From a virus (taxonomy: Duplodnaviria; Caudoviricetes), in the IMG/VR virus record IMGVR_UViG_3300020227_000045, positions 10,496-74,495 of that record: a DNA stretch of 64,000 bases, one strand, 5' to 3'. The number at the start of each line of letters is the position of its first letter. Position 1 is the stretch's first letter. The position numbers and the translations under genes were made by a program. The notes beneath the pieces are model-generated. The model worked only from the letters and a program-made list of their open reading frames with translations, searched no databases and was not told the DNA's origin. Of this stretch, positions 1,812 to 48,908 are shown piece after piece.

Positions 1812-2003
1812 TTATTTTCTCTCCTCTCTAATTTTATCAAATTCTTTAGTAGTTTTAATACTGTACTCTGTATCTGGGTTACGTTCTTCTAGTCTTTCTT
1901 TAAGTTCTTCTAAGATAGAAATATCTCTATTTGCTCTGATTTGTTTAGGTACTTTTTTCTTACCTACTTTATCATAATAACATAAAGCATACCATGTGTC
2001 CAT
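1812..2003 (-). CDS. hypothetical phage protein
   Basis: 63-aa ORF abutting the next gene. Confidence 0.6.
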   Translation of the reverse strand: MDTWYALCYYDKVGKKKVPKQIRANRDISILEELKERLEERNPDTEYSIKTTKEFDKIREERK

Positions 2004-2009
2004 ATTAAT

Positions 2010-2200
2010 CCGTTGTCAAAAATTTATAAAACTCTATAAATTTTATTCCTTATTCAACGTACCCCTTTTTGAGTATTTCACTATAAATAGCTACTTCTGA
2101 TTACTCTACTAAGGTTTGTGTGATACTCCAAAGGCTTAAATTCCCATACAACGAATGGTACATATATTTAGTATCGTGTTAGTGATATTCTAAATATTAT
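2010..2200 (-). ncRNA. putative TnpB omega-RNA / IS607-type right end
   Basis: directly 3' of tnpB; minus strand reads ATGTACCATTCGTTGTATGGGAATTTAAGCCTTTGGAGT...GGGGTACGTTGAATAAGGAA...TTTTTGACAACGG, resembling IS607-type right ends terminating in GG; limits approximate. Confidence 0.65.
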
Positions 2201-3302
2201 AGTTAGCTAAATTAATACTTGCATTAAGGTCTCTATCAATGCTAAAACCACATTCACAGTTAAATACTCTGTCTGATAGTTTTAAGTCTTTATTAATGGT
2301 TCCACAGTTAGAGCACATCTTACTAGAAGGAAAGAATCTATTTGCTATAACTAAGTCAATACCTTTATTCTTAGTTTTATACTCTAACTGTCTACGAAAT
2401 TCATAGAAACCTTGTTTTTGTATTGCTTTAGCTAAATGTCTATTTTTCATCATACCGCTCACATTCAAATCTTCAATTACAATTCTTCTAGGTTTGGTTT
2501 TCACTATAGAAGATGTAGTTTGATGTAAATGGTTTTTACGAGTATTAGACAATCTTCGTTGTAGTAGTTTGATTTCTTTTTCAAGTTTTATAATATTGCA
2601 AGTTTTAACAAACGTACTCCCTTCTTTATTGTTTTGGTATTTACGAGATACCTTACGTTGCAATCTACGTAATCTTTTTTCTAATTTTTTAGTTTTTACT
2701 GTTTTATTTATATTACCATAAATAGTTCCATCAGAGCATATTGCTAGCTCTTTTATCCCTAAGTCAATACCTAAAGATTCATTTGTTAGTTCTTCATATT
2801 CATCTTCTTTTTCTATAGAAACACTTATATACCAATACTTACCATCGAAGGTAATCCTAGGGTTATAGTATTTAGTATCTGTAGGAAGTTGTTCTGAGGT
2901 TCTAACCCAACCTATTTTTTCTAATAATACTAATTTTTCTTTTACTTTTAATTTTTGTGTATCATTATAGAAACTAGGTCTTGTTTTCTTTCTAGACTTA
3001 AATTTAGGAAACTTAGCTTGACCTTTAAAAAACCTCTTGTAAGCGTTACAAGAATCTTTAACTGATTGCTTAGGGATATTGTTACTTACCTCAGTTAACC
3101 AATTAAATTCTTCAGTTTTCTTAAGTTGAGTAATTTCTTTACGTAAAACAGAATCAGGTATAAATTTATTTCCTTGTTTATAATTTTCTTGTTGTTTTCC
3201 TAAGACCCAATTATATATAAATCTTGCTGTTCCTGAAGATTTATATAACTGTTTTTCTTGTTGTTTAGTAGGTTTAATTCTAACTTTTTTAGTTATCATC
3301 AT
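2190..3302 (-). mobile_element. tnpB: TnpB RNA-guided endonuclease (IS200/IS605/IS607 OrfB), no transposase nearby
   Basis: N-terminal HTH_OrfB (KVRIKPTKQQ...GTARFIYNW), RuvC motifs GIDLG, IVIEDL and DRDLNASINL, Zn ribbon CSNCG...CECG. Confidence 0.93.
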
Positions 3303-3371
3303 TTAATTCACCTACTATATTACTAAATTTTACTATAGACATATATGCCATAATATCATCCTCCTATTTAT

Positions 3372-3400
3372 AGTATATAATACTATTATCTATATGTCAA
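3372..3400 (-). promoter_or_regulatory. sigma-A-type promoter upstream of tnpB
   Basis: TTGACA-17 bp-TATACT on minus strand, followed by AGGAGG. Confidence 0.75.
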
Positions 3401-3444
3401 CAACTATTTTAAAATTAAGAGGTTCAATTAAGAACCTCTATAAA

Positions 3445-4464
3445 TTACATAAGTAAAGGTTCTGCAACCTCATGTAGATACTTACGTAAATCTTCAATAT
3501 TTTTAATCTCTTTATTTTTAACAACATTTACAAGTGTAGTTTCCAATTCGTTTAGTATTAAATTGAATGTTGTTTTATTCGTTTCTTTAGTATATTTTAA
3601 AGTTATTATATACCCTATTCTTAAATCTATATTTAAAGTACCTTCATTTTTTATAGTTAAATTTGAAGTAGGCATATACCCACCAATATAAATAGGAGAT
3701 GACAACATAGCAAGAATCATAGGTAATCTATCTTTCTCTTGTGTACCTTTTTCTGCTTTCTCTTTTGCTTGTAGGTACTCCCTCTTAGCTCCTAATAAAC
3801 AATCACTTATCCACTGTTCTATATCTCCAACTTCTTTTGGTATTTTAAACTGGTATACAGTATCGAGTGATATACTTAATGTATTTAAGTCTCCTTCTAC
3901 TATAGTAACAGGGATTTTCTTATCTAACTCTTCATCATATAAATAGAAAATAATACCATCATTATTATCTTGTCTAAAGTAATGTACATATCTATTACTG
4001 TTCTTATTTAGAGTGTTCATAGTATTAACTCTAGGATAATTACCAATTTCATCTCTTTGTTCAATATAATCTTTCCATTCAGTTAAAAATGGTGAAAGCT
4101 TATTAACTTCATTAATAAAATATAATGATTCTTCTATATTTTTATCTTTTAAATTTTCTTTAATAAAATCAAAAGCTAATTGAGTACCTTCTTCAAAGTC
4201 TCTTACGTCACCTAAATAAGTATAAAAATCATTATGGTCACAGTGTGTTGCACAGTATCCTTTAACTTGAATGATTGTAAAAACAAAATTAAAGTCTTTC
4301 TCAGTTAATGGTCTTTCTAACGTATCTAAATCAATTTCTTTTTTAACTGAAACTAAAAGTACCTTCTTATCATTTTCTATATATGAGTGATTAAATACAG
4401 TTAAGTACTTACCTTCCCCTGTTAAAAATCGTTTTACTTTTAATTTCTTTTTATCAAACTCCAT
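3445..4464 (-). CDS. hypothetical phage protein
   Basis: 339-aa ORF with AAGGAG SD and its own upstream promoter-like sequence; no motif recognised. Confidence 0.75.
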   Translation of the reverse strand: MEFDKKKLKVKRFLTGEGKYLTVFNHSYIENDKKVLLVSVKKEIDLDTLERPLTEKDFNFVFTIIQVKGYCATHCDHNDFYTYLGDVRDFEEGTQLAFDFIKENLKDKNIEESLYFINEVNKLSPFLTEWKDYIEQRDEIGNYPRVNTMNTLNKNSNRYVHYFRQDNNDGIIFYLYDEELDKKIPVTIVEGDLNTLSISLDTVYQFKIPKEVGDIEQWISDCLLGAKREYLQAKEKAEKGTQEKDRLPMILAMLSSPIYIGGYMPTSNLTIKNEGTLNIDLRIGYIITLKYTKETNKTTFNLILNELETTLVNVVKNKEIKNIEDLRKYLHEVAEPLLM

Positions 4465-19464: not shown

Positions 19465-22400
19465 TTAATCATCTAAAAAGAAATTATTATTGTCTTCATA
19501 GTTTGTATTAATGAATACAGAATCAAATTCATTTTCATTATTTTTAATGTACAAGTCTTCTAGACGTGATAGACCAATTCTAGCATATATACTTGCTTGA
19601 CTATAGTGGTCATCGCCTTTTCTCTTGATTACTTGATACATTTCTTCTGTTCTACTATCTTCTTCATCTCTAATTACCACATTTTGCCAATGTTTAAGAA
19701 GTATAGCTTTATCGTTATCATTTTCTTGGTAAATTCTTATTCTTCCTGTTTTTAAATCTTGGATATAAATTTTGTTCTGCATTAATTTATCTACAGTAAC
19801 AATATTTGAATTCTCATTGAATACAGGTTTAATTTGTCCAGATGATTTAGGAGATGATTTGTAAGTACAACCAAACACAATATCTTCACCAAAGTATTGT
19901 TGAAGTCTTAGTAGGTTGTTTCCTGAATCTCCTGTATCTGCTACAATAATATCTGGATTATATTTAGAAAATTCTACACGTATTTGTTCTATATCTGATT
20001 CAACCATATTAGGGTTTTTATTTCTTTTAACATTAAATAACCTAATTAAGTCTATCTTACCATCTTCGGTCATTCCATGTATAGTGCAATAATGAACATT
20101 TCCCCAATCCACTGATGCTGCGATAAATTTATAATCTCCTCTATTAAACATTTGTTTCTTAGCAATAGGAGATTGATTATCATAAATATCTTCTTGTAAT
20201 ACTTTCATCTTCTGGTCTTCATAAGGGAATCCTAGCGTGTAGTTATAAAACAATTGGGTTGATTCAGTGTTCATTTCTTTTTCTTTTAATTCACTAGCTG
20301 AAATCCAACATTTTTTGTTACGATTGAGTTCGTTATTCTCAACCTTCTATATATCGCTATATAAGTTCAGACTATATCTTTACCTTATCAAATGAGACTT
20401 AGGTATCCTCTGTTTCGTGCTACTTAGCACTACTAATTAGTCGTTGCACGTTCTCTTATTACAAGAGCTTCGCTCATGATTATCTCTAATGAGAGACTTC
20501 CCATGAATTAAAAGGACTTCACTCTGTACATTTCTATATAGAGGGGCTTGGTTAACCGCATTTAGCTGTGAAATAAAATAACCTCTTGTTCCTTTTCCAC
20601 CTTTAGTTCTTTCAGGGTACTTACAGTGCCATTCACCGTTATACCATCTATCTAGAAGTTTACCACATTTTTGACAAACAAATTGGTAACTTCCTTCTTG
20701 CACTGTTTTAGCCATCTCGTCAACACCTTCAGGATTGACTAATAGGATATTCCCACTCTTCTCTAAATTATCTGGGTCATAATCTTCATAACTCATTTCA
20801 TTTAAGTAATCACAATGTGTACATCTATGACCATAATACCATTGGTCAGATTGCATGTAGAGTTTATGGATTCCCATATTTGGAGTCGTCTTAAACATTA
20901 TTATTTTCATAATAAAATGGACTATCTCATAATCCTTATTTTTGGTTAAGGATTCTCTGCTTTACGAAATTAATCTCTTATCTGATTCTACCTTACTCCT
21001 TTTAGTAAGTTACTCAGAAATTTAGTCTCTAGGCATTTACAAGTATATAACTTGATTTAGCAATTGATTGTCTACAGCTTTACCTGTTTAGAGTTTCCAA
21101 TTTTAACAGAGTTTTTCAAAACAAATTACTTTGTTAAGCCCCACGATTTAACATAGGGGTACTCCAACGTCTTATAACCTTGAAAGGTGAACTTGACATT
21201 GATTCCATTGCTGATGATTCTGATGATGAAGGTACTCTATCATATTCCAAATTATACCGCTAGTTTCCTAGTATTTACTTACGGTTTAGACTATCTCATA
21301 ACTACTTACTTAGGTTAGTAGCTCCTTGCTTTACGAAATTAATCTCTTATCTGATTCTACCTTACTCCATTTAGTAAGTTACTCAGAAATTTAGTCGTTA
21401 GGCATTTATCAGTTAATAACTGAATTTAGCAATTGATTGCCCTCAGCATTATCTGTTAGGGGTTTCCAATTTTAACAAGGTTTATACTGGACAAATTTTA
21501 TCCAGTGACAAATAATCAATCATTTTTTTACTTAATACCCCTACTTTCGTAGTACTTTAACACTATTTAAATAGTGGGCTTAGACTATATCTTAGCTATT
21601 CATTAATAGCTCCTTGCGTTACTTCTCTTTGAAAGAGTTTTTTTATCTAAAGTAATTTAGAAATTTAGTCGTTAGAGATTTTCCTCTACATAAAGTAGAT
21701 TCTTTCCTACGGTATTCCCTCTATCCTTATAGGACTTAGGGTCTCTTACCAGCTACTTAAAGCTATGACCGTTTAGCAAGGTTTAACGTGAACAGATTAT
21801 TTTATCCACGCCTTCTAAAGCTTTAGGTGTAGAACTTGTTCTAAAGAACATACTTGAATTTCTTATTTGTTTATATTTCAAGGAATCATTATCTTGGTTA
21901 ATTATGCTTGCAAAATAAGGTTGTTGCAGTGTAGGGTTTATCCTACTTTGTACGAACTTTTGCATTTGATCACTGGTTGGGTCTAGGGTATACCGCTAGT
22001 TTCCTAGTACTTTAACACTTAATTAAAAGTCGGAGTAGACTATATCATAATCCTTATTTTCGGTTAAGGACTCTCTACGTTACGGATTAAATATCCTTTT
22101 ATCTAGTTCTCAATATTCCCTTTTGAATATTTACCTAGAAGATTAGTCGTTAGGCATTTACGTAACTAAGGTATATATACCTTAGTTCGATTTAGCAATT
22201 GATTGTCCTCATCATTACATGTTAGGAGTTTCCAATTTTAGTAGAGTTATTCGATATACATTACTGTATAAAGCCTCCCCTAATTATTTGAAGGTGAACA
22301 TACATTTGACCGAATCTTTACTATGCGTATCTGCAAAGTGTAACATCTTATTGTATCCAACTTCACTTACGTTTATACCGTCACTTTCGTGATATTTATA

Positions 22401-23255
22401 TACGGACTAGACTATATCTTGATTGTATAAAGATAATTTTAATTACGGTTTATACAACCCCTTGCTTTACGAAATTAATCTTTTATACTGTTCTACACTC
22501 AACCATTTATGAGCTTACCAGTAATTTTAGTCGTTCGGCATTTATCAGTTAGTAACTGAATTTAGCACAGGATTGTCCTCAACTTTACTTGTTAGGAGTT
22601 TCCCTGTTTAACAAGGTTTTACTTGAACAAATTTTTATCCAAGTTGTCTCGACTTAAGTACTGCTATGTTAGGATGTTTGTCATTACGTTTATACCGTCA
22701 CTTTCGTGATATTTATATACGGACTAGACTATATCATAATCCTTATCTTTGGTTAAGGATTCTCTGCTTTACATTATTTATATTAAATAAATAACTATTA
22801 TCTAGTTCTCAGTATCTCCTTTTAGATACCTACCTAGAAATTTAGTCGTTAGCCATTTATCTTAATTCTATTATAACATACACATTTAGTGTTGTCAATA
22901 CTAAAATTAAGAATTTAGGAAGGGATTCTCACTATCCGTTTGGACTTAGAGTTTCTTATCAGGATATTCTTTATTTTCCTATGCCCTTTTAACAGAGTTA
23001 TTCGATATACATTACTGTATAAAGTCACATTATTTATATGATAGCAATTTGCCATGGTCTATGAGCTTGAGCTTTACTTTTATCTCTATTTGGTATAGAA
23101 AAAGTAATATTATGACCACGTATTAAATTGTGTTTCAACATATAAGCAGTTGTACTAGACATTGTTAATACATAATCTAACTGTTCTTGGGTAACATTTG
23201 TAGTTCCATATGTGGATATGAGTAAGTCTTTTAATTGTTTTCCATCCATTTTCAT
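19465..23255 (-). CDS. terL: terminase large subunit split into 8 exons: 23255-23038, 22686-22637, 22369-22292, 21982-21804, 21520-21500, 21247-21155, 20889-20555, 20308-19465
   Basis: exons sum to 1818 nt (605 aa plus stop) and restore RPWQIAIINDKHPNIAVLKSRQLGLSE, MFTYPTSDQMQKF, EGVDIDYLSLDEYDRV, WSTPTTPNMGIH, LNAVWISAS and the nuclease motifs SVDWG and GDDHY. Confidence 0.93.
20309..20554 (-). ncRNA. group I intron terL-I7 (246 nt, ORF-less)
   Basis: GT|taacc...atG|TTGG; AACGACTAA and GATATAGTCT. Confidence 0.88.
20890..21154 (-). ncRNA. group I intron terL-I6 (265 nt, ORF-less)
   Basis: CCT|atg...aaG|ACG; AGAGACTAA and GATAGTCC. Confidence 0.85.
21248..21499 (-). ncRNA. group I intron terL-I5 (252 nt, ORF-less)
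   Basis: GAT|aaaa...ttG|GAA splits Walker B D|E; AACGACTAA and GATATAGTCT. Confidence 0.88.
21521..21803 (-). ncRNA. group I intron terL-I4 (283 nt, ORF-less)
   Basis: GAT|aaaa...atG|ATT; AACGACTAA and GATATAGTCT. Confidence 0.88.
21983..22291 (-). ncRNA. group I intron terL-I3 (309 nt, ORF-less)
   Basis: U/G junctions restore T-Y-P-T; AACGACTAA and GATATAGTCT. Confidence 0.85.
22370..22636 (-). ncRNA. group I intron terL-I2 (267 nt, ORF-less)
   Basis: U/G junctions; CGACTAAA and GATATAGTCT; splits the Walker A region QLG|LS. Confidence 0.88.
22687..23037 (-). ncRNA. group I intron terL-I1 (351 nt, ORF-less)
   Basis: 5' exon ends in U, intron ends in G; P7 elements AACGACTA and GATATAGTCT. 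Confidence 0.88.
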
Positions 23256-29259: not shown

Positions 29260-32235
29260 ATGGTTGCAAAACTCACAGAAAAAGAAGCAATAGCATTTGT
29301 CAAAAGTTTAGAAGGTAAGAAAATAGACTTTGATGGATGGTACGGATATTAACATAATGGTATCCTAACTCATTGAATTGACGGGAACCCCCTTAGAGCT
29401 TTAACTACTAACTTATCATGGTGACATAGGTAAGGGCAAACAGTAATGTGTTTGGTAAAGTAAAAAAGTTAAAGATTGGGAAATCCGCAGGTAAGCTACT
29501 ATGGTAACAGTAGTAGAAACTTCAACGACTAAATACTATCAATTGGTAGTTAGTGGTGAGTACTTGATAAAAGTTAAGTAATAATATAGTCTGTTCTTAT
29601 AGGAAACTATAAGAGTTACATTATACAATCAATGGTAGAAATATTATTGAGGAAAGATGATAACATAACAAAAAGCAATGTTTTGACCTAGCTAATGAAT
29701 ATTGGAATAAATTATTTGGCACAAGTCTTAAAGGTGTAGGAGCAAAAGACATACCTAATTCAAATAATTTTAAAGGTATAGCTAAGGTATATAATAATAC
29801 ATCTTCATTTAAAGCTAAACCAGGTGATTTGGTAATTTTCAACTCATCTTATGGTGGCGGGTATGGTCACGTAGCTATAGTTTTAAATGGAAATGCAGAT
29901 GGAAATTTAATGAAGTTTGTAAGTCTTGACCAGAATCAAATAAGGTTCCCTTTATATAGTAATATATAATTGAATAACACATTAAATTGCTGGAACCCCG
30001 TAAAGCTCAATTAACTACAACGTAATAGGAAACTATAAGCGTGAAAGTTAGGAAACTAGAAAAAATAATTGAGATACCATAAGCTGAGAAAAAGCTCAAA
30101 GAGTGCTAAGTGGTGAATAATCGGAAATCAGCATCCAAACCTACAAATAGTGGGGAGGTTCAACGACTATAATATGTGGCTCCTATAAGGAGTATGGTAT
30201 AGTCTAGTCCGTAAATAAATACTAGGAAACTAGCGGTATAGACGTGGCAAGGCGGAGGATGGACAAGTGGTCCAGAAAAAGGTGGTACAGGTTGGGAAGC
30301 AGCAACAAGAGTAACTCATCCATACGATTTCCCTATGTGGTTTATCAGACCATATTACAAAGAAGAGTCAAAAACAAAAACTACAAGTAAAAAAACAACA
30401 GCTAAGAAAAAAGCTAAAAAACTAACTTATATTCGTGATGAAGTAAAAGGTTATCGTTTACCTAATCGTGGATATAAGCCAAAAGGGATAGTTCTACACA
30501 ACGATGCGGGTAGTGCAGGTGCTACAGCTGAAGCGTACCATCGTGGATTAGTAAATGCACCATACTCAAGATTAGCTGCTGGTATTGCTCATTCTTATAT
30601 CAGTGGTAACACAGTATATCAAGCATTACCAGAAAGCAGAGTAGGTTGGCATACGGCTTAATTTAGGTCATTTGTATAGTAATATACATCTAAATGTGTT
30701 TTAATTCAGAGGAAGTCTAAACAATATAAGTTGTAGATAATTCTGAGCTAAGTTTATATTGACATATAATTATATTTATTGTATAATATTCATAGGAGGA
30801 GATTTTATGGAATTATACAAATTAGAAAATATTAAAGGTTTAGAAGAATTAAAAGGATACTCAATAGATAAAGAAGGTAACGTATACTCTCACAAATATA
30901 CAACTTCGAATGGTAATACTTTTTATTATCATATATCAAATGAACCAGTTAAGAAATTAACTACTAAAAAAGATAGTAGAGGTTATATAAAAATAGGGTT
31001 AAACGGTAAAAGTTTATTCATTCATAGGCTGTTAGCTTTATTATTTATTCCTAATCCAGAGAATAAAGAACAAGTAAATCATATGAACGGTGTTAAAGAT
31101 GATAATAGAATAGAAAATTTAGAATGGTGTACAAACAGAGAAAATAGAATACATGCTATAGAGAATAATTTGTTAGATAACATACCTTATGGCATTTCTC
31201 AGTACACTAAAGAAGGGTTACATGTTAGAGATTATGATACTTGTTTAGAAGCTATAGAATACTTAGGCTTAGACAAAGGTGCTTCTGGAAATATAGGAAG
31301 ATGTATTAGAGGTAAAAGAAAAACAGCTTATGGTTATATATGGAAGTCAATATAAAAAAGTGCAACGACTATCCCTTAGGACGAGTGCCAATAAAAATAA
31401 ATCGTCAACAGGAGTAGGGCTCAAGTCAATGGAGTGGGTGAAAATCCCTTAAATCGAAAAGGACACTTCCTTTTATAAGGAAAAGATATAGTCTATTCTT
31501 ATAGGAAACTATAAGGAGTTCATAAGAGAACCAATAAAGAGTTACGAACTTTATTGAATATTAAAGAACCAAAATGGTAATAAAAATTACTATGGTATAG
31601 AAATATGTCAATCTATAGGTGCAAGTGATAAAGTATTCTTAGCTAATGAACAAGCATCTTTCCAAGAAGCTGCTCGTTTATTAAATAAATGGGGATTAAC
31701 AGCTAATAGAAATACTATCCGTTTACACATGGAATTTTCTCAAACTAGCTGTCCTCATAGAAGTATGAAGTTACACACTGGTTTTGACCCTGTAACACAA
31801 GGCGTACCTTCAAAAGCTACACAGCTTAAACTCAAAGACTATTTTATTAAGCAAATTCGTGCTTATCAAAATGGTAAAATACCAACTGCAACTGTTTCTA
31901 AAAACACTAGCTCTGCAAGCAATACAAAATCAACTGTAGCAGGAAAATGGAAACGTAATTCTTTCGGAACGTATTACATGACAGAAAAAGCTAGATTTAC
32001 TAATGGTAATCAACCTATAGCAGCAAGAACAGTAGGACCTTTCAGAAGTTGTCCATTAGCTTATTGGTTCCAACCAGGAGGATACTGTGATTATGACGAA
32101 GTAATGCTTCAAGATGGTCACGTATGGATTGGATATGATTGGCAAGGACAAAGATATTATCTTCCTATACGTACATGGAATGGAGTAGCTCCTCCAAATC
32201 AAGGTTTAGGAAACCTTTGGGGTTCAATTAAGTAA
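29260..32235 (+). CDS. endolysin (CHAP - amidase_2 - SH3b) in 4 exons: 29260-29349, 29676-29936, 30245-30658, 31567-32235
   Basis: exons sum to 1434 nt (477 aa); joins give DGWYGY|[17 protein letters not shown]|WQGGG, LHND, GWHTA|[17 protein letters not shown] and an SH3b C-terminus. Confidence 0.93.
29350..29675 (+). ncRNA. group I intron lys-I1 (326 nt, ORF-less)
   Basis: TAT|taac...aaG|CAA; TTCAACGACTA and TATAGTCT. Confidence 0.88.
29937..30244 (+). ncRNA. group I intron lys-I2 (308 nt, ORF-less)
   Basis: AAT|caaa...acG|TGG; TTCAACGACTA and TATAGTCT. Confidence 0.88.
30659..31566 (+). ncRNA. group I intron lys-I3 (908 nt) with HNH gene
   Basis: GCT|taat...aaG|AAC; TGCAACGACTA and AAGATATAGTCT. 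Confidence 0.9.
30807..31355 (+). CDS. intron-encoded HNH homing endonuclease with NUMOD1-like tail
   Basis: AGGAGG SD, ATG 30807; [36 protein letters not shown]; C-terminal [15 protein letters not shown]. Confidence 0.92.
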   Translation: MELYKLENIKGLEELKGYSIDKEGNVYSHKYTTSNGNTFYYHISNEPVKKLTTKKDSRGYIKIGLNGKSLFIHRLLALLFIPNPENKEQVNHMNGVKDDNRIENLEWCTNRENRIHAIENNLLDNIPYGISQYTKEGLHVRDYDTCLEAIEYLGLDKGASGNIGRCIRGKRKTAYGYIWKSI

Positions 32236-40537: not shown

Positions 40538-43211
40538 ATGTCTAACCAAATGTTCGGAGGACATCTAGACCCATACGAAACAACAGATAACTATGAGTAC
40601 CCTTATCACCCAGCAGGTAATCCTAAAAAGATAGATAAATCAGAAGTAGAATCATATACTCTAGCTGATTATGGTTGGACACCTGAAGCTATCAAAGAAC
40701 ATTACATGTATGGTATAAGGGTACAAAACCCTGAAACAGGTAAAGAAATGGATGATGCTTTCTATTATCATGTATTTGAAGTGGCTATAGATAAAGCAGA
40801 AAAAGCATTAGATATATCTATACTACCTGATTTCCAAGATGAACAAAGAGACTATTATGAACAAGACTTCAATAGTTACATGTTTGTTCATGCTTATAAA
40901 AAACCAATACTACAAGTTGAAGGATTACAATTACACTTCAATGGTAGACCAATATATAAATATCCAGCTAACTGGTGGAAAGTACACCATGTAGATGGAC
41001 AAGTACAGTTATATCCAACAGCTTTAATGCAAGTAGGACAGGGAGCTAGTTATTCTAGTGCGGTGAGTGGTTATCCTTATCTAGCAGGTATGATGCCACC
41101 ACAAGGTAATACTTATGCTCCTCAAATGATACATTTAGAATACATTTCAGGTATGTTACCACAGAAAAGAGCAGGCGTAACTAAACCATGGGAATGTCCT
41201 ACAAGTTTACAACAATTAGTAATTAAATACGCACTTAAAGAGATATACCAAGTATGGGGTTACGATGATATTACCCTGTGTGTAGCGTAAGTTGCACATT
41301 TTCAAAGGTTAACTGCTAAGAAATCCTAAAGCTAACTAAACTACAAAGTAATCTGAAAGGATAGGCTTGAATGTTGAGAAATCAGAAAAAATTAGTTAGA
41401 TACTCTAAGGTTAAATCCTAAGGAGAAGAGCAATGGAAGTTTAGCATCGAAAGTCCTAAGTCAATAGATAAGGAATACGTTCAACGACTATTCTGTATAG
41501 ACGACAGAAGTAAAGCTCCAAGTGATTGGGAGAAGAAAAATCTTTACCCTAGTCTTAGGGATAACAAATAGTCTGCACACGTCTTGAAAAAGAGTGCTAG
41601 GAATTGACCTAGACTTATTTAGTAGCGTAAGTAAGGAAACAATGTTAATTAAATGAAAACTTCCTATTGAAATTACCCCAAGTATATGTTATATTATAGG
41701 TATAATATATATAAGGTGGTGAAAGTAAATGAAAAAAACGGAAAATAAATTTTATAGAGGTATAATACTAAAAGTAAACCCTACACAAGAACAAGAAGAT
41801 TTAATGTGGAAACATGTTAATCACTCAAGGTTTATTTATAATTATATGTTAGAAAGATATTGGGAAGCTTTAGATAGTGATAAATATATAGACTATAAGA
41901 ATATGCTTTCTTTACTTAAGGAAATGAAAAAAGAAGATGATTATGATTTCTTAAATGAAGTATCTAGAAAAACTTTAGTTGGTAAAATAGATGATTTAAG
42001 AGAAGCTTTAATAAAGTACCATAATCATGAAATAAGAAAACCTAAATTTAAGTCTAAAAAGAGAGAACCTAAACGTTTTCCAATTAGATATGACCGTATG
42101 CACTTCAGTAAAGAAAAAAGTGTTAAGGTTGAGAAGTTAGGCTACTTAAGAATTTCTAATGGAACATATAAAAATAATAAATCAGTACTTGAGAATGAAA
42201 ACATTAAACCTTTAAATCCTAAGTGCTATTATGACGGTAAATATTGGTATGTATCATTTTCGGTAGAAGTAGATAATCAATACAAAAAAGAAAATGATAA
42301 CACTGATGAAGTTGTAGGAATAGACTTAGGTAGTGGTAAAAAACACGTAATTTGTTCTAACAGAAAAATATATGGTAATATTATTTATTCTAAGAAAATG
42401 AAAAGGTTAGAAAAAAAAATATCTGACCTACAGAAAAGATTAAGTAATAAATATGATATTAACCACACCAAAACAAATAATGTTTTAAAGCTAGAAAATA
42501 AGATAGCTAAAGTTTATAGGAAAATGTCAAATATCCGTAAAAATCATGTACATGAAATAACAAAAGAAATTGTTGAAAAGTATCCTAAAGAGATTATTGT
42601 AGAGGATATAAGAGTTCGTGATTTAATAAAAGACAGAGGATATACAGGACAAAAAAGAAAAAAAATACAGTTTTCTAATTTCTATATGATTAGACAGCAA
42701 TTACAATATAAATGTGAAGATAGAGGTATAAAATTTACAGTAGCTAATACTTATTATCCATCATCACAAATATGTAGTAATTGCGGAGAAAGAAAAAGAA
42801 ATGCTTTAAAATTACAGTTAGGTGATAAAGTCTTTAAATGTAATGCTTGTGGATATGAAGAAGATAGAGATATTAATGCAAGTATTAACTTAAAAAATTA
42901 CCATAAATCTCAATGGTTAAAAGAACAAAACCAATAATATGTTTGCTTTTAGTAGGGTTCTATAACCCGAAAATATAATGCCTTTTATTTTAAGAAGGAA
43001 GTTAATTTAATTAACATATGGTAATCTCATTATCGGTGCAGGAATAGCAAACAAATCACTAGATGTTGATGGTATTAGTGAAACAATCGGTACTACTCAA
43101 TCAGCTATGTATGGTGGAGCTAGTGCTCAAATACTTCAAATAAATGAAGATATTGGAGAACTACTAAAAGGTCTACAATCATACTTTGGTACCAACATGG
43201 TAGCTATCTAA
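40538..43211 (+). CDS. conserved head-neck (adaptor-like) virion protein in 2 exons: 40538-~41258 and ~43021-43211
   Basis: join restores KEIYQVWG|NLIIGAGIANKSLDVDGISETIGTTQSAMYGGASAQIL; 912 nt = 303 aa. Confidence 0.85.
41259..43020 (+). mobile_element. IStron-like element: group I intron core plus tnpB, no transposase
   Basis: intron core ~41260-41640 (TTCAACGACTA 41481, AAATAGTCT 41567), internal promoter, tnpB, short 3' tail ending CATATG; GG at both junctions; ends uncertain by 1-3 nt. Confidence 0.85.
41729..42937 (+). CDS. tnpB: intron-encoded TnpB nuclease
   Basis: LKVNPTQEQ...HSRFIYNY, VGIDLG, IIVEDI, CSNCG...CNACG, DRDINASINL. Confidence 0.92.
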   Translation: MKKTENKFYRGIILKVNPTQEQEDLMWKHVNHSRFIYNYMLERYWEALDSDKYIDYKNMLSLLKEMKKEDDYDFLNEVSRKTLVGKIDDLREALIKYHNHEIRKPKFKSKKREPKRFPIRYDRMHFSKEKSVKVEKLGYLRISNGTYKNNKSVLENENIKPLNPKCYYDGKYWYVSFSVEVDNQYKKENDNTDEVVGIDLGSGKKHVICSNRKIYGNIIYSKKMKRLEKKISDLQKRLSNKYDINHTKTNNVLKLENKIAKVYRKMSNIRKNHVHEITKEIVEKYPKEIIVEDIRVRDLIKDRGYTGQKRKKIQFSNFYMIRQQLQYKCEDRGIKFTVANTYYPSSQICSNCGERKRNALKLQLGDKVFKCNACGYEEDRDINASINLKNYHKSQWLKEQNQ

Positions 43212-47641: not shown

Positions 47642-48908
47642 ATGGCAAGTGAAGCTAAACAGTCCATTCACACTGGTAATACCGTCTATCTCATGATTAA
47701 AGGTAAAATTGTAGGCAGAGCTCAATCAGCTTCAGGTACTCGTGAATACGGTACTGAGGGCGTATATGAAATTGGTTCAATTATGCCACAAGAACACGTT
47801 TACCTTAGATATGAAGGTACGGTTACAATAGAAAGATTACGAATGAAAAAAGAAAACTTCGCAAAATTAGGATATGCTTCTTTAGGTGAAGAAATCCTTA
47901 AAAAAGATGTTATCGACATTTTAGTTGTAGATAACTTAACTAAGAGTGTAATCATAGCATACCATGGTTGTAGTGCTAATAACTATAAAATTTGTAGCTT
48001 TAGGAAGTAATTCCTATCGAAAAACTTTTCTAAACAGGGAAACCTAAGTACAATTTGTATAAGGCAATCCTGTGCTAAATTGACTTAATCAGTCATAAAT
48101 GCCAAACGACTAACAGAAACCTATTCATATAAGTGAAGGGAGTAAGAGTACAGCCAAGTGGTCAAGGTGTTGGGTAATAACCAAATAAATCCTTGTTAAA
48201 TGGAAAAGAAAAGAATCCTTAATATAAAAAGGATTATGATATAGTCTCATCTATATGGAAACATATAGCAGTTCTAAAAGAACGTACAATGATTAACGAC
48301 CATTGTAGAAGTAAATGGATGAAGAAATTAATACCAATGAAATGATTACAGAAAGTATTGAGTAGGTAAAAAGCTCCTATAATCAGAAATGGTTATAGCA
48401 AATCTCTCTAATTCATGGAAACCCCTAACAAGTAATGATGAGGGCAATCATGAGCGAAGCTCTTAAAACAAGAGAACGTGCAACGACTAGTCTACGGACG
48501 TACAATCAAGTGATTGGAAATGGGAGACACCTTCAATTTTAAGGTGATGATATAGTCTGAACTATATGGAAACATATAGAAGGATAGAATTAACGATTCT
48601 ATTCGTAACAAAATTGTTTCTTATCTTACAGCATTAAATTTCTAGTGCCCTTATACAGTAATGTATATTGAATCAATCCTCTAATTCAGGGAAACCCTAA
48701 ACGAAATTAAGACGTAGGCAATCCTGAGCCAAGCCTATAATTAGGAAGGTGCAACGACTATCTCTAAGGAGAGTACGCTCAAGTGAGTGGAAATGGGGAT
48801 TATCCTATACAATATAGGATAGTGATATAGTCTGGACTATATGGAAACATATAGAAGGTTAGGAGTAACGAACCTAATCGTAACATAATCGCAGATAAAG
48901 CATCATAA
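47642..48908 (+). CDS. tail tube protein in 4 exons: 47642-47986, 48318-48363, 48617-48634, 48892-48908
   Basis: exons sum to 426 nt (141 aa): ...GCSANNY|DEEINTNEMITESIE|FSYLTA|SDKAS-stop. Confidence 0.92.
47987..48317 (+). ncRNA. group I intron tube-I1 (331 nt, ORF-less)
   Basis: U/G junctions; AAACGACTAA and GATATAGTCT. Confidence 0.87.
48364..48616 (+). ncRNA. group I intron tube-I2 (253 nt, ORF-less)
   Basis: U/G junctions; TGCAACGACTA and GATATAGTCT. Confidence 0.87.
48635..48891 (+). ncRNA. group I intron tube-I3 (257 nt, ORF-less)
   Basis: U/G junctions; TGCAACGACTA and GATATAGTCT. Confidence 0.87.

Follow-up and report, generated by a model that had tools for sequence, protein, structure and literature searches.

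A TnpA-less group B IStron in a virion gene of lytic staphylococcal phages, its recent passage between phage genera and its shortened right end

In a lytic Staphylococcus phage, a 303-aa virion gene is split by an insert of 1,762 nt that carries a group I ribozyme and a TnpB nuclease. This locus raises the question of what kind of element the insert is, whether the gene is restored by splicing, and how the element reached this phage. In the present study, we analyzed the insert within a stretch of 64,000 nt of viral DNA (the window) together with related phage genomes. Neither phiSA_BS1, a relative at 97-99% identity, nor phage K has an interruption in this gene. When 40538-41259 and 43022-43211 were joined, we obtained a 912-nt ORF that restores ...YQVW-G-NLIIG... 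and is collinear with, and of the same length as, the genes of phiSA_BS1 (L007 3001-3912) and phage K. The insertion point lies inside a Gly codon (GG/T), in line with the original prediction that a conserved virion gene was split at W-G/N; the limits then given (41252-43030) enclose the insert but are wider than the actual ones, 41260-43021. Relative to the empty alleles of phiSA_BS1 and phage K, the 5' junction is GTATGGGG/UUACG. The GG repeat allows the DNA boundary to slide by 1-2 nt, and it was placed so that the element begins with U, as the group B rule demands. Junctions of the GG type, also foreseen, were borne out at both ends. The sister IStrons of Fi4S2, qdsa001 and c-st terminate in CGG; at the 3' terminus of the window element (...CAUAUGG) the GG is retained, C has become U and the SL2 loop is changed to match. 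The gene holding exon 1 has been annotated as 'tail fiber', neck or head-completion protein (PHROG 772), and exon 1 is 97% identical to the phiSA_BS1 gene. Elements at the same site are found in Silviavirus phages and DH2, and that of StAP1 lies in the same gene at the same insertion site with a TnpB about 93% identical. As a structure, the insert and its boundaries are plainly observed (Table 1).

Table 1. Features of the split virion gene and of the inserted element in the window
Feature	Position	Strand	Basis or remark
Exon 1 of virion gene, ends ...GTATGGGG	40538..41259	+	PHROG 772
Whole IStron, first base U, end ...CAUAUGG	41260..43021	+	absent from phiSA_BS1 and phage K alleles
P1/P10 region	41253..41281	+	read from sequence
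Group I ribozyme core P3-P9.2, subgroup IA, with P7.1 and P7.2	41300..41641	+	covariation; nhmmer 310 bits
P3	41304-08 with 41541-45	+	covariation
P7	41486-90 with 41569-73	+	covariation
5' arm of AU-rich inverted-repeat stem enclosing the ORF	41642..41675	+	34 nt against 42986-43017
Promoter-like site TTGAAA-17-TATATT, extended TG	41667..41695	+	10 of 12 matches
tnpB, 402 aa, IS607-type RNA-guided endonuclease	41729..42937	+	Pfam, NCBIfam, PDB matches
Right end, shortened guide-RNA scaffold, 84 nt	42938..43021	+	anchor comparison, fold
SL2, loop CUAU	42955-59 with 42964-68	+	fold
Stub hairpin at RAGATH-18 position	42981-86 with 42993-98	+	fold
Terminal hairpin	43001-06 with 43010-15	+	fold
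3' arm of inverted-repeat stem	42986..43017	+	overlaps stub hairpin and terminal hairpin
Exon 2, 63 codons and stop	43022..43211	+	comparison of alleles

The 5' part of the insert was examined by comparison with related introns. Over nine of these, the P3-P9.2 core with its P3/P7 pseudoknot was 95.2% paired, and compensatory changes on both sides were found in 57 of 90 pairs, a value reached by none of 500 shuffles (slid controls, 32-45%). These findings confirm the predicted group I core. The Rfam model RF00028 did not match the window copy, even at E <= 10, and matched the ORF-less KSAP7 copy weakly (20.3 bits, E 0.008); this reflects the limits of the model and not absence of the ribozyme, and covariation decided the matter. 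A candidate P3 picked by hand at 41357-62 was discarded, because covariation puts this helix elsewhere. The internal guide, 41270-41281, aligns both exons, which extends the earlier claim that it is complementary to the empty site. In P1, positions 41273-41280 pair with UAUGGGG of the 5' exon (41253-41259) and with U41260 of the intron, and in P10 the bases AUUA (41270-41273) pair with UAAU of the 3' exon (43022-43025). Fi4S2 follows the same pairing logic with other exons (AGGGU/GCCCU and CAUU/AGAUG). A 9-nt motif in the promoter spacer (ATTACCCCA, 41673-41681), also complementary to the ligated exons, was regarded as chance, being not conserved in DH2 (CCAC). The G-ended 5' exon had been taken for a non-canonical splice site; it is actually a documented hallmark of group B IStrons, and splicing after G was shown experimentally for BcISt1 (PMC4227781; PMC13565253). 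The inverted-repeat stem around the ORF (34 nt) has 78-94% complementarity. Since its 3' arm overlaps the stub and terminal hairpins of the right end, the intron fold and the guide fold exclude each other, and such competing folds are known for CboIStron (PMC13521648).

From these elements we infer that, in the late pre-mRNA, the 5' ribozyme would fold, the inverted-repeat stem would draw the 3' end towards the core, both exons would be aligned by the internal guide, and splicing after G41259 and G43021 would restore the virion protein. It is highly improbable that there is no splicing and that the gene is truly split or inactivated, with two ORFs as separate products. The gene is conserved across Herelleviridae (752 records), the insert is present in more than 24 isolated, viable phages, exon 2 continues in frame without its own start codon or ribosome-binding site, and both ribozyme fold and internal guide are under clear structural selection. 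A truly split gene would suit the absence of spliced reads: the contigs of runs covering small shares of the query hold no spliced junction of the window allele, and one contig each from the RNA-seq runs X5 and X6 crosses the unspliced 5' junction (exon 1-intron). A single joint spans the insert, in X2; it has AACTTG and thus represents the phiSA_BS1-type empty allele, not a splice product, and X1 is an ORF-less variant. Taken as they are, the RNA contigs weigh neither for nor against splicing.

The ORF of the element encodes a TnpB in which, as claimed before, the D/E/D residues of the RuvC site are intact (D199, E292, D381), and so are both CxxC pairs of the zinc finger (CSNC...CNAC). It matched Pfam PF07282, PF01385 and PF12323, NF040570 (243 bits) and PDB 8IAZ (E 1e-42), the IS607 TnpB of ISFba1, to which it is closest. 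It is 39-69% identical to the TnpBs of the IStrons CbISt4 (c-st; 39%), Fi4S2 and qdsa001. A single-protein scan of IMG/VR returned SA11 as the sole result, and a profile scan was needed to get more. The promoter-like site is situated 33 nt before the tnpB start and is the best of 10 in the region, in which the total number of such sites is not above shuffles. A similar site can be read from the sequence before tnpB in DH2, Fi4S2, qdsa001 and c-st. It is probably the internal promoter of the element, in agreement with the original prediction; a ribozyme-less transcript starting there would encode TnpB and end in the right-end RNA, running into exon 2. There is no ORF A in the element, and the search for a trans-acting serine recombinase that had been proposed turned up no resolvase (PF00239), either in the 74.5-kb contig or in the four complete genomes of phages with related elements that were searched. 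The stated lack of TnpA therefore stands. A missing TnpA is common among group B IStrons and is no bar to membership.

The right end is where the doubt about TnpB activity arises. Between shared anchors, 7 nt are found in the window element versus 67-78 nt in sister IStrons; the gap was sized by these anchors, as MAFFT had pushed it to the alignment end. RAGATH-18 (RF03064) matched neither the element, with E values up to 10 allowed, nor the same-site copies; it scores 57-72 bits in five sister IStrons, and the deletion of its core is common to the whole same-site group. The earlier remark that the 3' tail is short for an omega-RNA was right: it measures just 84 nt because the RAGATH-18 interior is deleted. 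An nhmmer profile of RAGATH-18 built from sequence alone failed on loci in which the motif is plainly visible and is uninformative on the frequency of loss. Thermodynamic folding of the tail was unremarkable (z -0.6 to -1.2). Its last bases, UAUGG, pair with the SL2 loop in a pseudoknot read by eye, CUAUA/UAUGG in the window element versus CCGUA/UACGG in Fi4S2 and qdsa001, and this pairing covaries over about 10 IMG/VR loci (also by eye). These pairings point to a scaffold pseudoknot preserved through compensatory change. We tentatively suggest, at somewhat below even chances, that the 84-nt right end represents a natural miniature guide RNA, with which TnpB has co-evolved and still cuts DNA. 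Such a scaffold would retain the closing helix, SL2, the pseudoknot and the terminal hairpin only, with the RAGATH-18 core gone.

Published dissections set a high demand on this scaffold. CboIStron cleavage needs nearly the whole right end, and it is abolished by removal of at least 174 nt or by deletion of SL2, SL3 or SL5 in the stem-loop numbering of CboIStron (PMC13521648). In ISFba1, a pseudoknot involving RAGATH-18 bases is essential (PMC11061315). The would-be 20-nt guide/target (43022-43041, TAATCTCATTATCGGTGCAG) is mismatched at 4 positions with phiSA_BS1, at 5 with phage K and at 3 with the nearest IMG/VR empty allele. Most of these positions are close to the TAM, and the form TAATCTC is absent from all six IMG/VR empty alleles and from both phage alleles (phiSA_BS1, phage K). 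The original prediction had named the 5' flank TGGG as the TAM. A TGGG TAM is indeed published for CboTnpB (10.1101/2023.11.20.567912), but in the window GGGG precedes U41260 and TGGG lies one base further 5'. In keeping with self-protection, the bases preceding the guide at the self site are AUGG, which lacks the G at -3, and it is the -3 G at which CboTnpB discriminates most strictly (10.1101/2023.11.20.567912).

The RAGATH-18 loss, in the window and in every same-site copy, and a guide with 3-5 mismatches to all compared empty alleles stand against a cutting TnpB. Together with the CboIStron and ISFba1 work, which points to the lost scaffold part being required (PMC13521648, PMC11061315), they argue for a decaying IStron. 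Such an element would splice, its guide RNA would be dead since the RAGATH-18 deletion, it would have spread by ordinary homologous recombination, and its TnpB would be retained because it does something else, such as tuning splicing by its binding to the right end or acting with a guide RNA that another element supplies. We consider this a real possibility, if a rather doubtful one. In its favor, TnpB binding was reported to lower CboIStron splicing (10.1101/2023.11.20.567912), and the sister IStron of qdsa001 keeps RAGATH-18 with a broken tnpB, which makes work in trans conceivable in some phages. In the phage fragment itself, the only RAGATH-18 belongs to a second, unrelated TnpB, just 40% identical to that of the element, and this speaks against a borrowed guide. 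The ORF-less derivatives KSAP7 and LSA2308 also fit decay, and they are what is expected of a decaying homing element.

The pattern of selection weakens the case for decay. Among same-site copies, tnpB has a dN/dS of 0.12-0.14 with dS up to 0.57, and all six copies, from three phage lineages, are open, keep D/E/D and share the deletion; such constraint, with the zinc finger also intact, is not expected of a useless nuclease. The 84-nt tail differs from that of DH2 at 4 of 84 positions, whereas the ORF next to it has some 8 differences per 60 nt. Viable, ORF-less LSA2308 has lost the 5' part of the tail, so splicing does not need that part, and yet the 5' 55 nt are conserved in the window element and the pseudoknot complementarity is retained. 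These comparisons show purifying selection on both tnpB and the tail. Because the element is a mosaic, part of the selection signal may stem from a lineage with another right end.

The history of the element was read from its degree of identity to other copies. It is 92-99.5% identical to Silviavirus copies, whereas the flanking genes of those phages are 71-76% identical. Identity to Silviavirus CIFT28 reaches 99.5% in the ribozyme, 92.6% in tnpB and 94% in the tail, against 75.9% in exon 1 and 71-74% in neighbouring genes; empty phiSA_BS1 is 97-99% identical in the neighbouring host genes and the virion gene. This contrast indicates, on the evidence of sequence identity, that the element crossed recently between phage genera, from a Silviavirus-like donor. 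Donor-type sequence extends 28-33 nt into exon 2 and less than 8 nt into exon 1. Exon 2 has seven synonymous differences to phiSA_BS1, at +4, 5, 7, 13, 22, 25 and 28, all identical to Silviavirus; 43022-43049 is therefore donor-type, a co-conversion tract read from one event with an inferred recipient sequence, and recipient-type sequence is found from +35 on. ISFba1 TnpB cuts 16 and 22 nt from the TAM (PMC11061315), and a tract in exon 2 only fits a cut about 16-22 bp inside this exon. The left junction, at most 7 nt from the element, would be hard to obtain by the plain homologous exchange, at about 76% identity, that a decaying IStron would need.

The precise left junction would also suit transposition as an IS607 element with TnpA acting in trans, from the host or a co-resident element, so that the event would be insertion and not homing. 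The GG-core junctions and the G-rich targets in three different genes are in keeping with this (sister IStrons are inserted after TATGGGG in a tail lysin gene and after TTAGGG in sbcD). We judge it very unlikely. Transposition would not carry along 28-33 nt of donor exon 2, no resolvase was found in the contig or the four genomes searched, the identical gene position is filled in three phage lineages, and the Cbo recombinase requires a terminal CGG (PMC13521648), which is UGG in the window element.

The reading that we favor, with a modest degree of confidence, is that of a TnpA-less group B (IS607-type) IStron that splices, spreads on the DNA level and has a TnpB cutting with a mini-guide. 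Between co-infecting phages, TnpB with the short right-end RNA would cut guide-matching empty alleles about 16-22 bp inside exon 2, and double-strand-break repair or gene conversion would copy the element into them; in this way it may have entered the window phage lineage from the Silviavirus-like donor. The weakest step is the break itself, with the RAGATH-18 core gone: the balance tips slightly towards TnpB with the shortened right-end RNA as its maker, and whether the window copy still cuts could go either way. The RNA-guided homing intron of the original prediction thus stood in part. Genus-crossing transfer, the tract in exon 2 only and selection on TnpB and tail are in favor of it, and so are two features of homing introns, the occurrence of alleles with and without the intron among close relatives and the co-conversion of a flanking exon; the RAGATH-18 deletion and the mismatched guide are against it.

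The assignment of the element as an IStron was correct. Group B IStrons include BcISt1 of Bacillus cereus, CbISt1-4 and CsISt1 (Tourasse et al. 2014, PMC4227781), and they are defined by a GG-ending target, first base U and terminal GG, with a 3' consensus CGG (CAG in CsISt1) and a stem of 15-34 bp (PMC4227781). We found in the window element an IA ribozyme at the 5' side, a GG-ending site, a U start, a GG terminus, a long AU-rich stem around the ORF and an IS607-type TnpB. It shares with this group the G-ended 5' exon, the ISBth15-like ORF B with ORF A often missing, and ORF-less derivatives left with the repeat stem only. An IStron in a phage is not new, since CbISt3 and CbISt4 are located in C. 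botulinum phage c-st (PMC4227781), and the ribozyme and both ends of CbISt4 can be aligned with the window element. Unlike group B IStrons, the window element has a strictly lytic Herelleviridae staphylococcal phage as host, ends in UGG instead of CGG, pairs U(+1) with A instead of G in P1, and has the RAGATH-18 part of its right end deleted.

With CboIStron and CseIStron (Zedaveinyte et al., 10.1101/2023.11.20.567912; PMC13521648), the element has in common a TnpB and guide RNA with the scaffold ending at the 3' splice site, a G-rich TAM that equals the insertion motif (TGGG), the pseudoknot of SL2 loop and last bases, and the competing folds. CboIStron has TnpA and a right end of five stem-loops, in contrast to the core-less 84-nt tail without TnpA described here, in which an internal promoter may separate the two RNA fates. 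The best solved relative, ISFba1 (8IAZ, PMC11061315), has the same RuvC triad and zinc finger, and its 16/22-nt cuts fit the tract, but it has a 187-nt scaffold with a central RAGATH-18 and an AGGAG TAM.

Among mobile phage group I introns, a classical case is T4 td with I-TevI. Such introns likewise show intron-plus and intron-minus alleles, co-conversion skewed to the cut side and ORF-less decay products. In the window element, an RNA-guided TnpB takes the place of the protein-only homing endonuclease, and the ORF lies between ribozyme and 3' splice site.

We found no paper on IStrons in staphylococcal phages. The clostridial IStrons were dissected with the transposase present, and the spread of TnpA-less IStrons by "intron homing" is no more than a conjecture in a 2026 review. 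The staphylococcal phage group offers a natural test bed, with lytic isolates carrying the full element, ORF-less derivatives and empty alleles, and the footprint of the transfer has the asymmetry expected of a TnpB cut. Either TnpB has long been selected without a working guide and has another function, or an IS607-type TnpB works with a scaffold of less than half the usual length, which, if true, would be of interest to genome editing. If cutting with the mini-guide is true, the element would be the first RNA-guided homing intron to act from one lytic phage to another, with the smallest natural scaffold in its TnpB class. In genomic work for phage therapy, the Silviavirus genes annotated as 'transposase' and 'split tail fiber' are to be reread as one spliced virion gene with an IStron.

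The window is part of the genome of a Herelleviridae staphylococcal phage that shares 97-99% identity with phiSA_BS1 (Baoshanvirus) in its head genes. The ORF at 40538-41290 starts in a conserved virion gene and continues into foreign sequence. This gene (PHROG 772) occurs in 752 phage records and has been annotated variously as tail fiber, neck or head-completion protein. When 40538-41259 was joined to 43022-43211, a 912-nt ORF was obtained that restored ...YQVW-G-NLIIG... and was collinear with the intact genes of phiSA_BS1 and phage K. Hence, the insert was placed at 41260-43021 (1,762 nt), within a Gly codon between GG and T, and the original prediction of a split virion gene was borne out. 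The insert encodes a TnpB of 402 aa, in which the predicted D/E/D residues (D199, E292, D381) and both CxxC pairs are present, and its nearest solved relative is the IS607 TnpB ISFba1 (8IAZ, E 1e-42). TnpA is lacking, as first noted; a search for a resolvase domain gave nothing in the contig, nor in the complete genomes of four phages that have related elements. The element had also been credited with its own promoter: TTGAAA-17-TATATT with TG, which ranks first among the promoter-like sites here, does lie 33 nt 5' of tnpB, and DH2, Fi4S2, qdsa001 and c-st have comparable sites; its use is what we infer. Transcripts started at this site would lack the ribozyme, and guide production would thereby be uncoupled from splicing.

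Within the window, the Rfam group I model recognised five other introns and missed the ribozyme of this element, and the ORF-less KSAP7 copy reached only 20.3 bits. The 5' 400 nt of the element had blastn relatives in 191 phage records. Nine diverged relatives were aligned, including LSA2308 (same site), qdsa001, DELF3 and Alsa_4 (tail lysin), Fi4S2 (sbcD), CbISt4 of C. botulinum phage c-st, 184DA and Enterococcus phage EF1TV. The RNAalifold consensus, with P3 added by hand, contained P3, P4-P6, P7, P7.1, P7.2, P8, P9, P9.1 and P9.2; 95.2% of cells were paired, 57 of 90 pairs changed on both sides, and none of 500 shuffles matched this covariation (slid controls, 32-45%). Because P7.1 and P7.2 are present, the ribozyme was assigned to subgroup IA, like published IStrons. 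In P1, 41273-41280 pairs with the 5' exon UAUGGGG and intron U41260, and in P10 the AUUA just 5' of this strand (41270-73) pairs with the 3' exon UAAU; therefore, the internal guide sets the exons in exactly the register required by the protein. Fi4S2 has the same layout with other exons (AGGGU/GCCCU, then CAUU/AGAUG). The G-ended 5' exon, previously regarded as a non-canonical splice site, is instead known from the literature as the hallmark of the group B IStrons, where the cut follows G and the U lies one position inside the intron, as found experimentally in BcISt1 (PMC4227781; PMC13565253). The element most likely splices in the manner of BcISt1. Public sequencing runs yielded no spliced junction and were uninformative on splicing either way. 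One run (X2) gave contigs with the junction of element and exon 2 and also a phiSA_BS1-type empty allele (41260/43029 joint), so that this sample may hold a mix of phages that carry the element and phages that lack it. Overall, we are nearly certain that this lytic staphylococcal phage carries a group B IStron that lacks TnpA.

Our literature search found no paper on IStrons in staphylococcal phages. Among 80 IMG/VR loci (L015-L094) fetched by a TnpB profile, about 30 had a match to the ribozyme nhmmer profile directly 5' of tnpB, and IStrons with TnpB thus seem common in viral contigs of uncultivated phages. The Fi4S2 sister IStron is intact, with a 424-aa TnpB, RAGATH-18 (an Rfam motif, the conserved core of the guide RNAs used by IS607 TnpBs) and a terminal CGG. 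The ORFs of the 184DA and EF1TV introns had no Pfam match and may be unrecognised intron-borne nucleases. Elsewhere in the window, a second TnpB has RAGATH-18 in full (60 bits) directly after it and no ribozyme upstream, so that it looks like a plain IS607-type TnpB and guide module without TnpA. An intron of the same family as the IStron ribozyme, whose own ribozyme is split in two by an ORF within a loop, adjoins an Rfam S808 'sRNA' match.

Positions of the repeat stem, related elements and other introns
Feature	Sequence	Position	Strand	Remark
AU-rich inverted-repeat stem, 34 nt	window	41642-41675 with 42986-43017		encloses the ORF
Sister IStron	qdsa001 (L009)	1972-3853		tail lysin gene, after TTATGGGG; full RAGATH-18 right end
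Sister IStron	Fi4S2 (L013)	2464-4345		sbcD/mre11-like gene split between LLG and HYH, after TTTTAGGG
Related ribozyme	184DA (L096)	2704-3996		431-aa ORF
Related ribozyme	EF1TV (L098)	2645-3748		368-aa ORF
Second TnpB, 370 aa	window	2046-3302	-	40% identical to the IStron TnpB
Split ribozyme	window	29983-30174 and 31360-31558	+	~1.2 kb between halves
S808 match	window	31800-32054
Two group I introns	window	20898-22646	-	above Rfam threshold
Three group I introns in tandem within ~900 nt	window	47976-48854	+	above Rfam threshold

Judged from identity values, the element has evidently moved between phage genera. Compared with Silviavirus CIFT_MFB_MRSA28, the ribozyme, tnpB and 3' tail are 99.5%, 92.6% and 94% identical, and exon 1 and the neighbouring genes only 75.9% and 71-74%. 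Against the Silviavirus copies (L010; 41260-43050 compared) the element is a mosaic, in which the ribozyme (41260-41690, almost no differences) and the 3' third (~2% from 42340) are near-identical and the 5' two-thirds of tnpB is diverged (~13% at 41790-42340); this indicates recombination between IStron variants. Exon 2 differs from the empty phiSA_BS1 allele by seven synonymous changes (+4, 5, 7, 13, 22, 25 and 28 from the insertion boundary), all in the Silviavirus state, and is again phiSA_BS1-type from +35; exon 1 is phiSA_BS1-type already at -8. Consequently, the donor tract extends 28-33 nt rightward and less than 8 nt leftward, in a single event whose recipient sequence is deduced. The cut sites of ISFba1 lie 16 and 22 nt 3' of its TAM (PMC11061315), and a cut at such a distance in exon 2 would force conversion of precisely this tract.

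The 3' tail had been considered short for a guide RNA, and this was confirmed. In five sister IStrons (those of qdsa001, Fi4S2, c-st and two IMG/VR loci), the right end matched RAGATH-18 at 57-72 bits, and the window element and its same-site copies had no Rfam match to it. The shared anchors GCCTTT and AGAAGGAAG are 7 nt apart in the window versus 78 in Fi4S2 and 67 in qdsa001; the RAGATH-18 interior is missing and the outer helix is capped by a short loop. The qdsa001 IStron is the mirror case: RAGATH-18 is complete there, and tnpB is broken at an A8 run, where codon 7 is followed by a stop. In CboIStron, cleavage requires almost the entire right end and deletion of SL2, SL3 or SL5 abolishes it (PMC13521648), and in ISFba1 a pseudoknot with RAGATH-18 bases is essential (PMC11061315). 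By analogy with these two systems, in which this part of the scaffold is probably needed, the window guide RNA should be dead. An element with a dead guide, kept for another reason, is a possible reading, to which we give a somewhat lower chance than to a working nuclease.

There is evidence in sequence constraint that the element is not simply dead. The deletion, with identical borders, is common to the Silviavirus copies, HM01, the window and S. pseudintermedius phage DH2, and among these copies tnpB is open and keeps D/E/D at dS up to 0.57 and dN/dS of 0.12-0.14. Between window and DH2 the 84-nt tail differs at 4 positions, and the adjacent ORF at ~8 per 60 nt. The ORF-less LSA2308 is viable after loss of the 5' part of the tail, so that splicing does not depend on this part. 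Furthermore, the pseudoknot of the SL2 loop with the last bases, read by eye, is CCGUA/UACGG in the sisters and CUAUA/UAUGG in the window, a compensatory change, and covaries in about 10 IMG/VR loci. The TnpB loops that align to the RNA-contact regions of ISFba1 are remodelled, which is only suggestive of live guide function.

When the would-be guide TAATCTCATTATCGGTGCAG was compared with empty alleles, phiSA_BS1 showed 4 mismatches, phage K 5 and the nearest of six IMG/VR alleles 3; the TAATCTC form was found in none of these eight alleles. This fits a homing cycle at a late stage, when susceptible alleles have been exhausted and derivatives without the ORF arise, and it is also compatible with an inactive element. 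The proposed RNA-guided homing intron is favoured by the transfer between genera, the donor tract skewed to exon 2 and the selection on tnpB and tail, and opposed by the deleted RAGATH-18 interior and the mismatches to all empty alleles compared. We give an even chance that TnpB still works as a homing nuclease under RNA guidance, with this right end as its natural mini-scaffold. The new twist, in an otherwise known kind of element and a little-described setting, is a right end without RAGATH-18 that is under selection.
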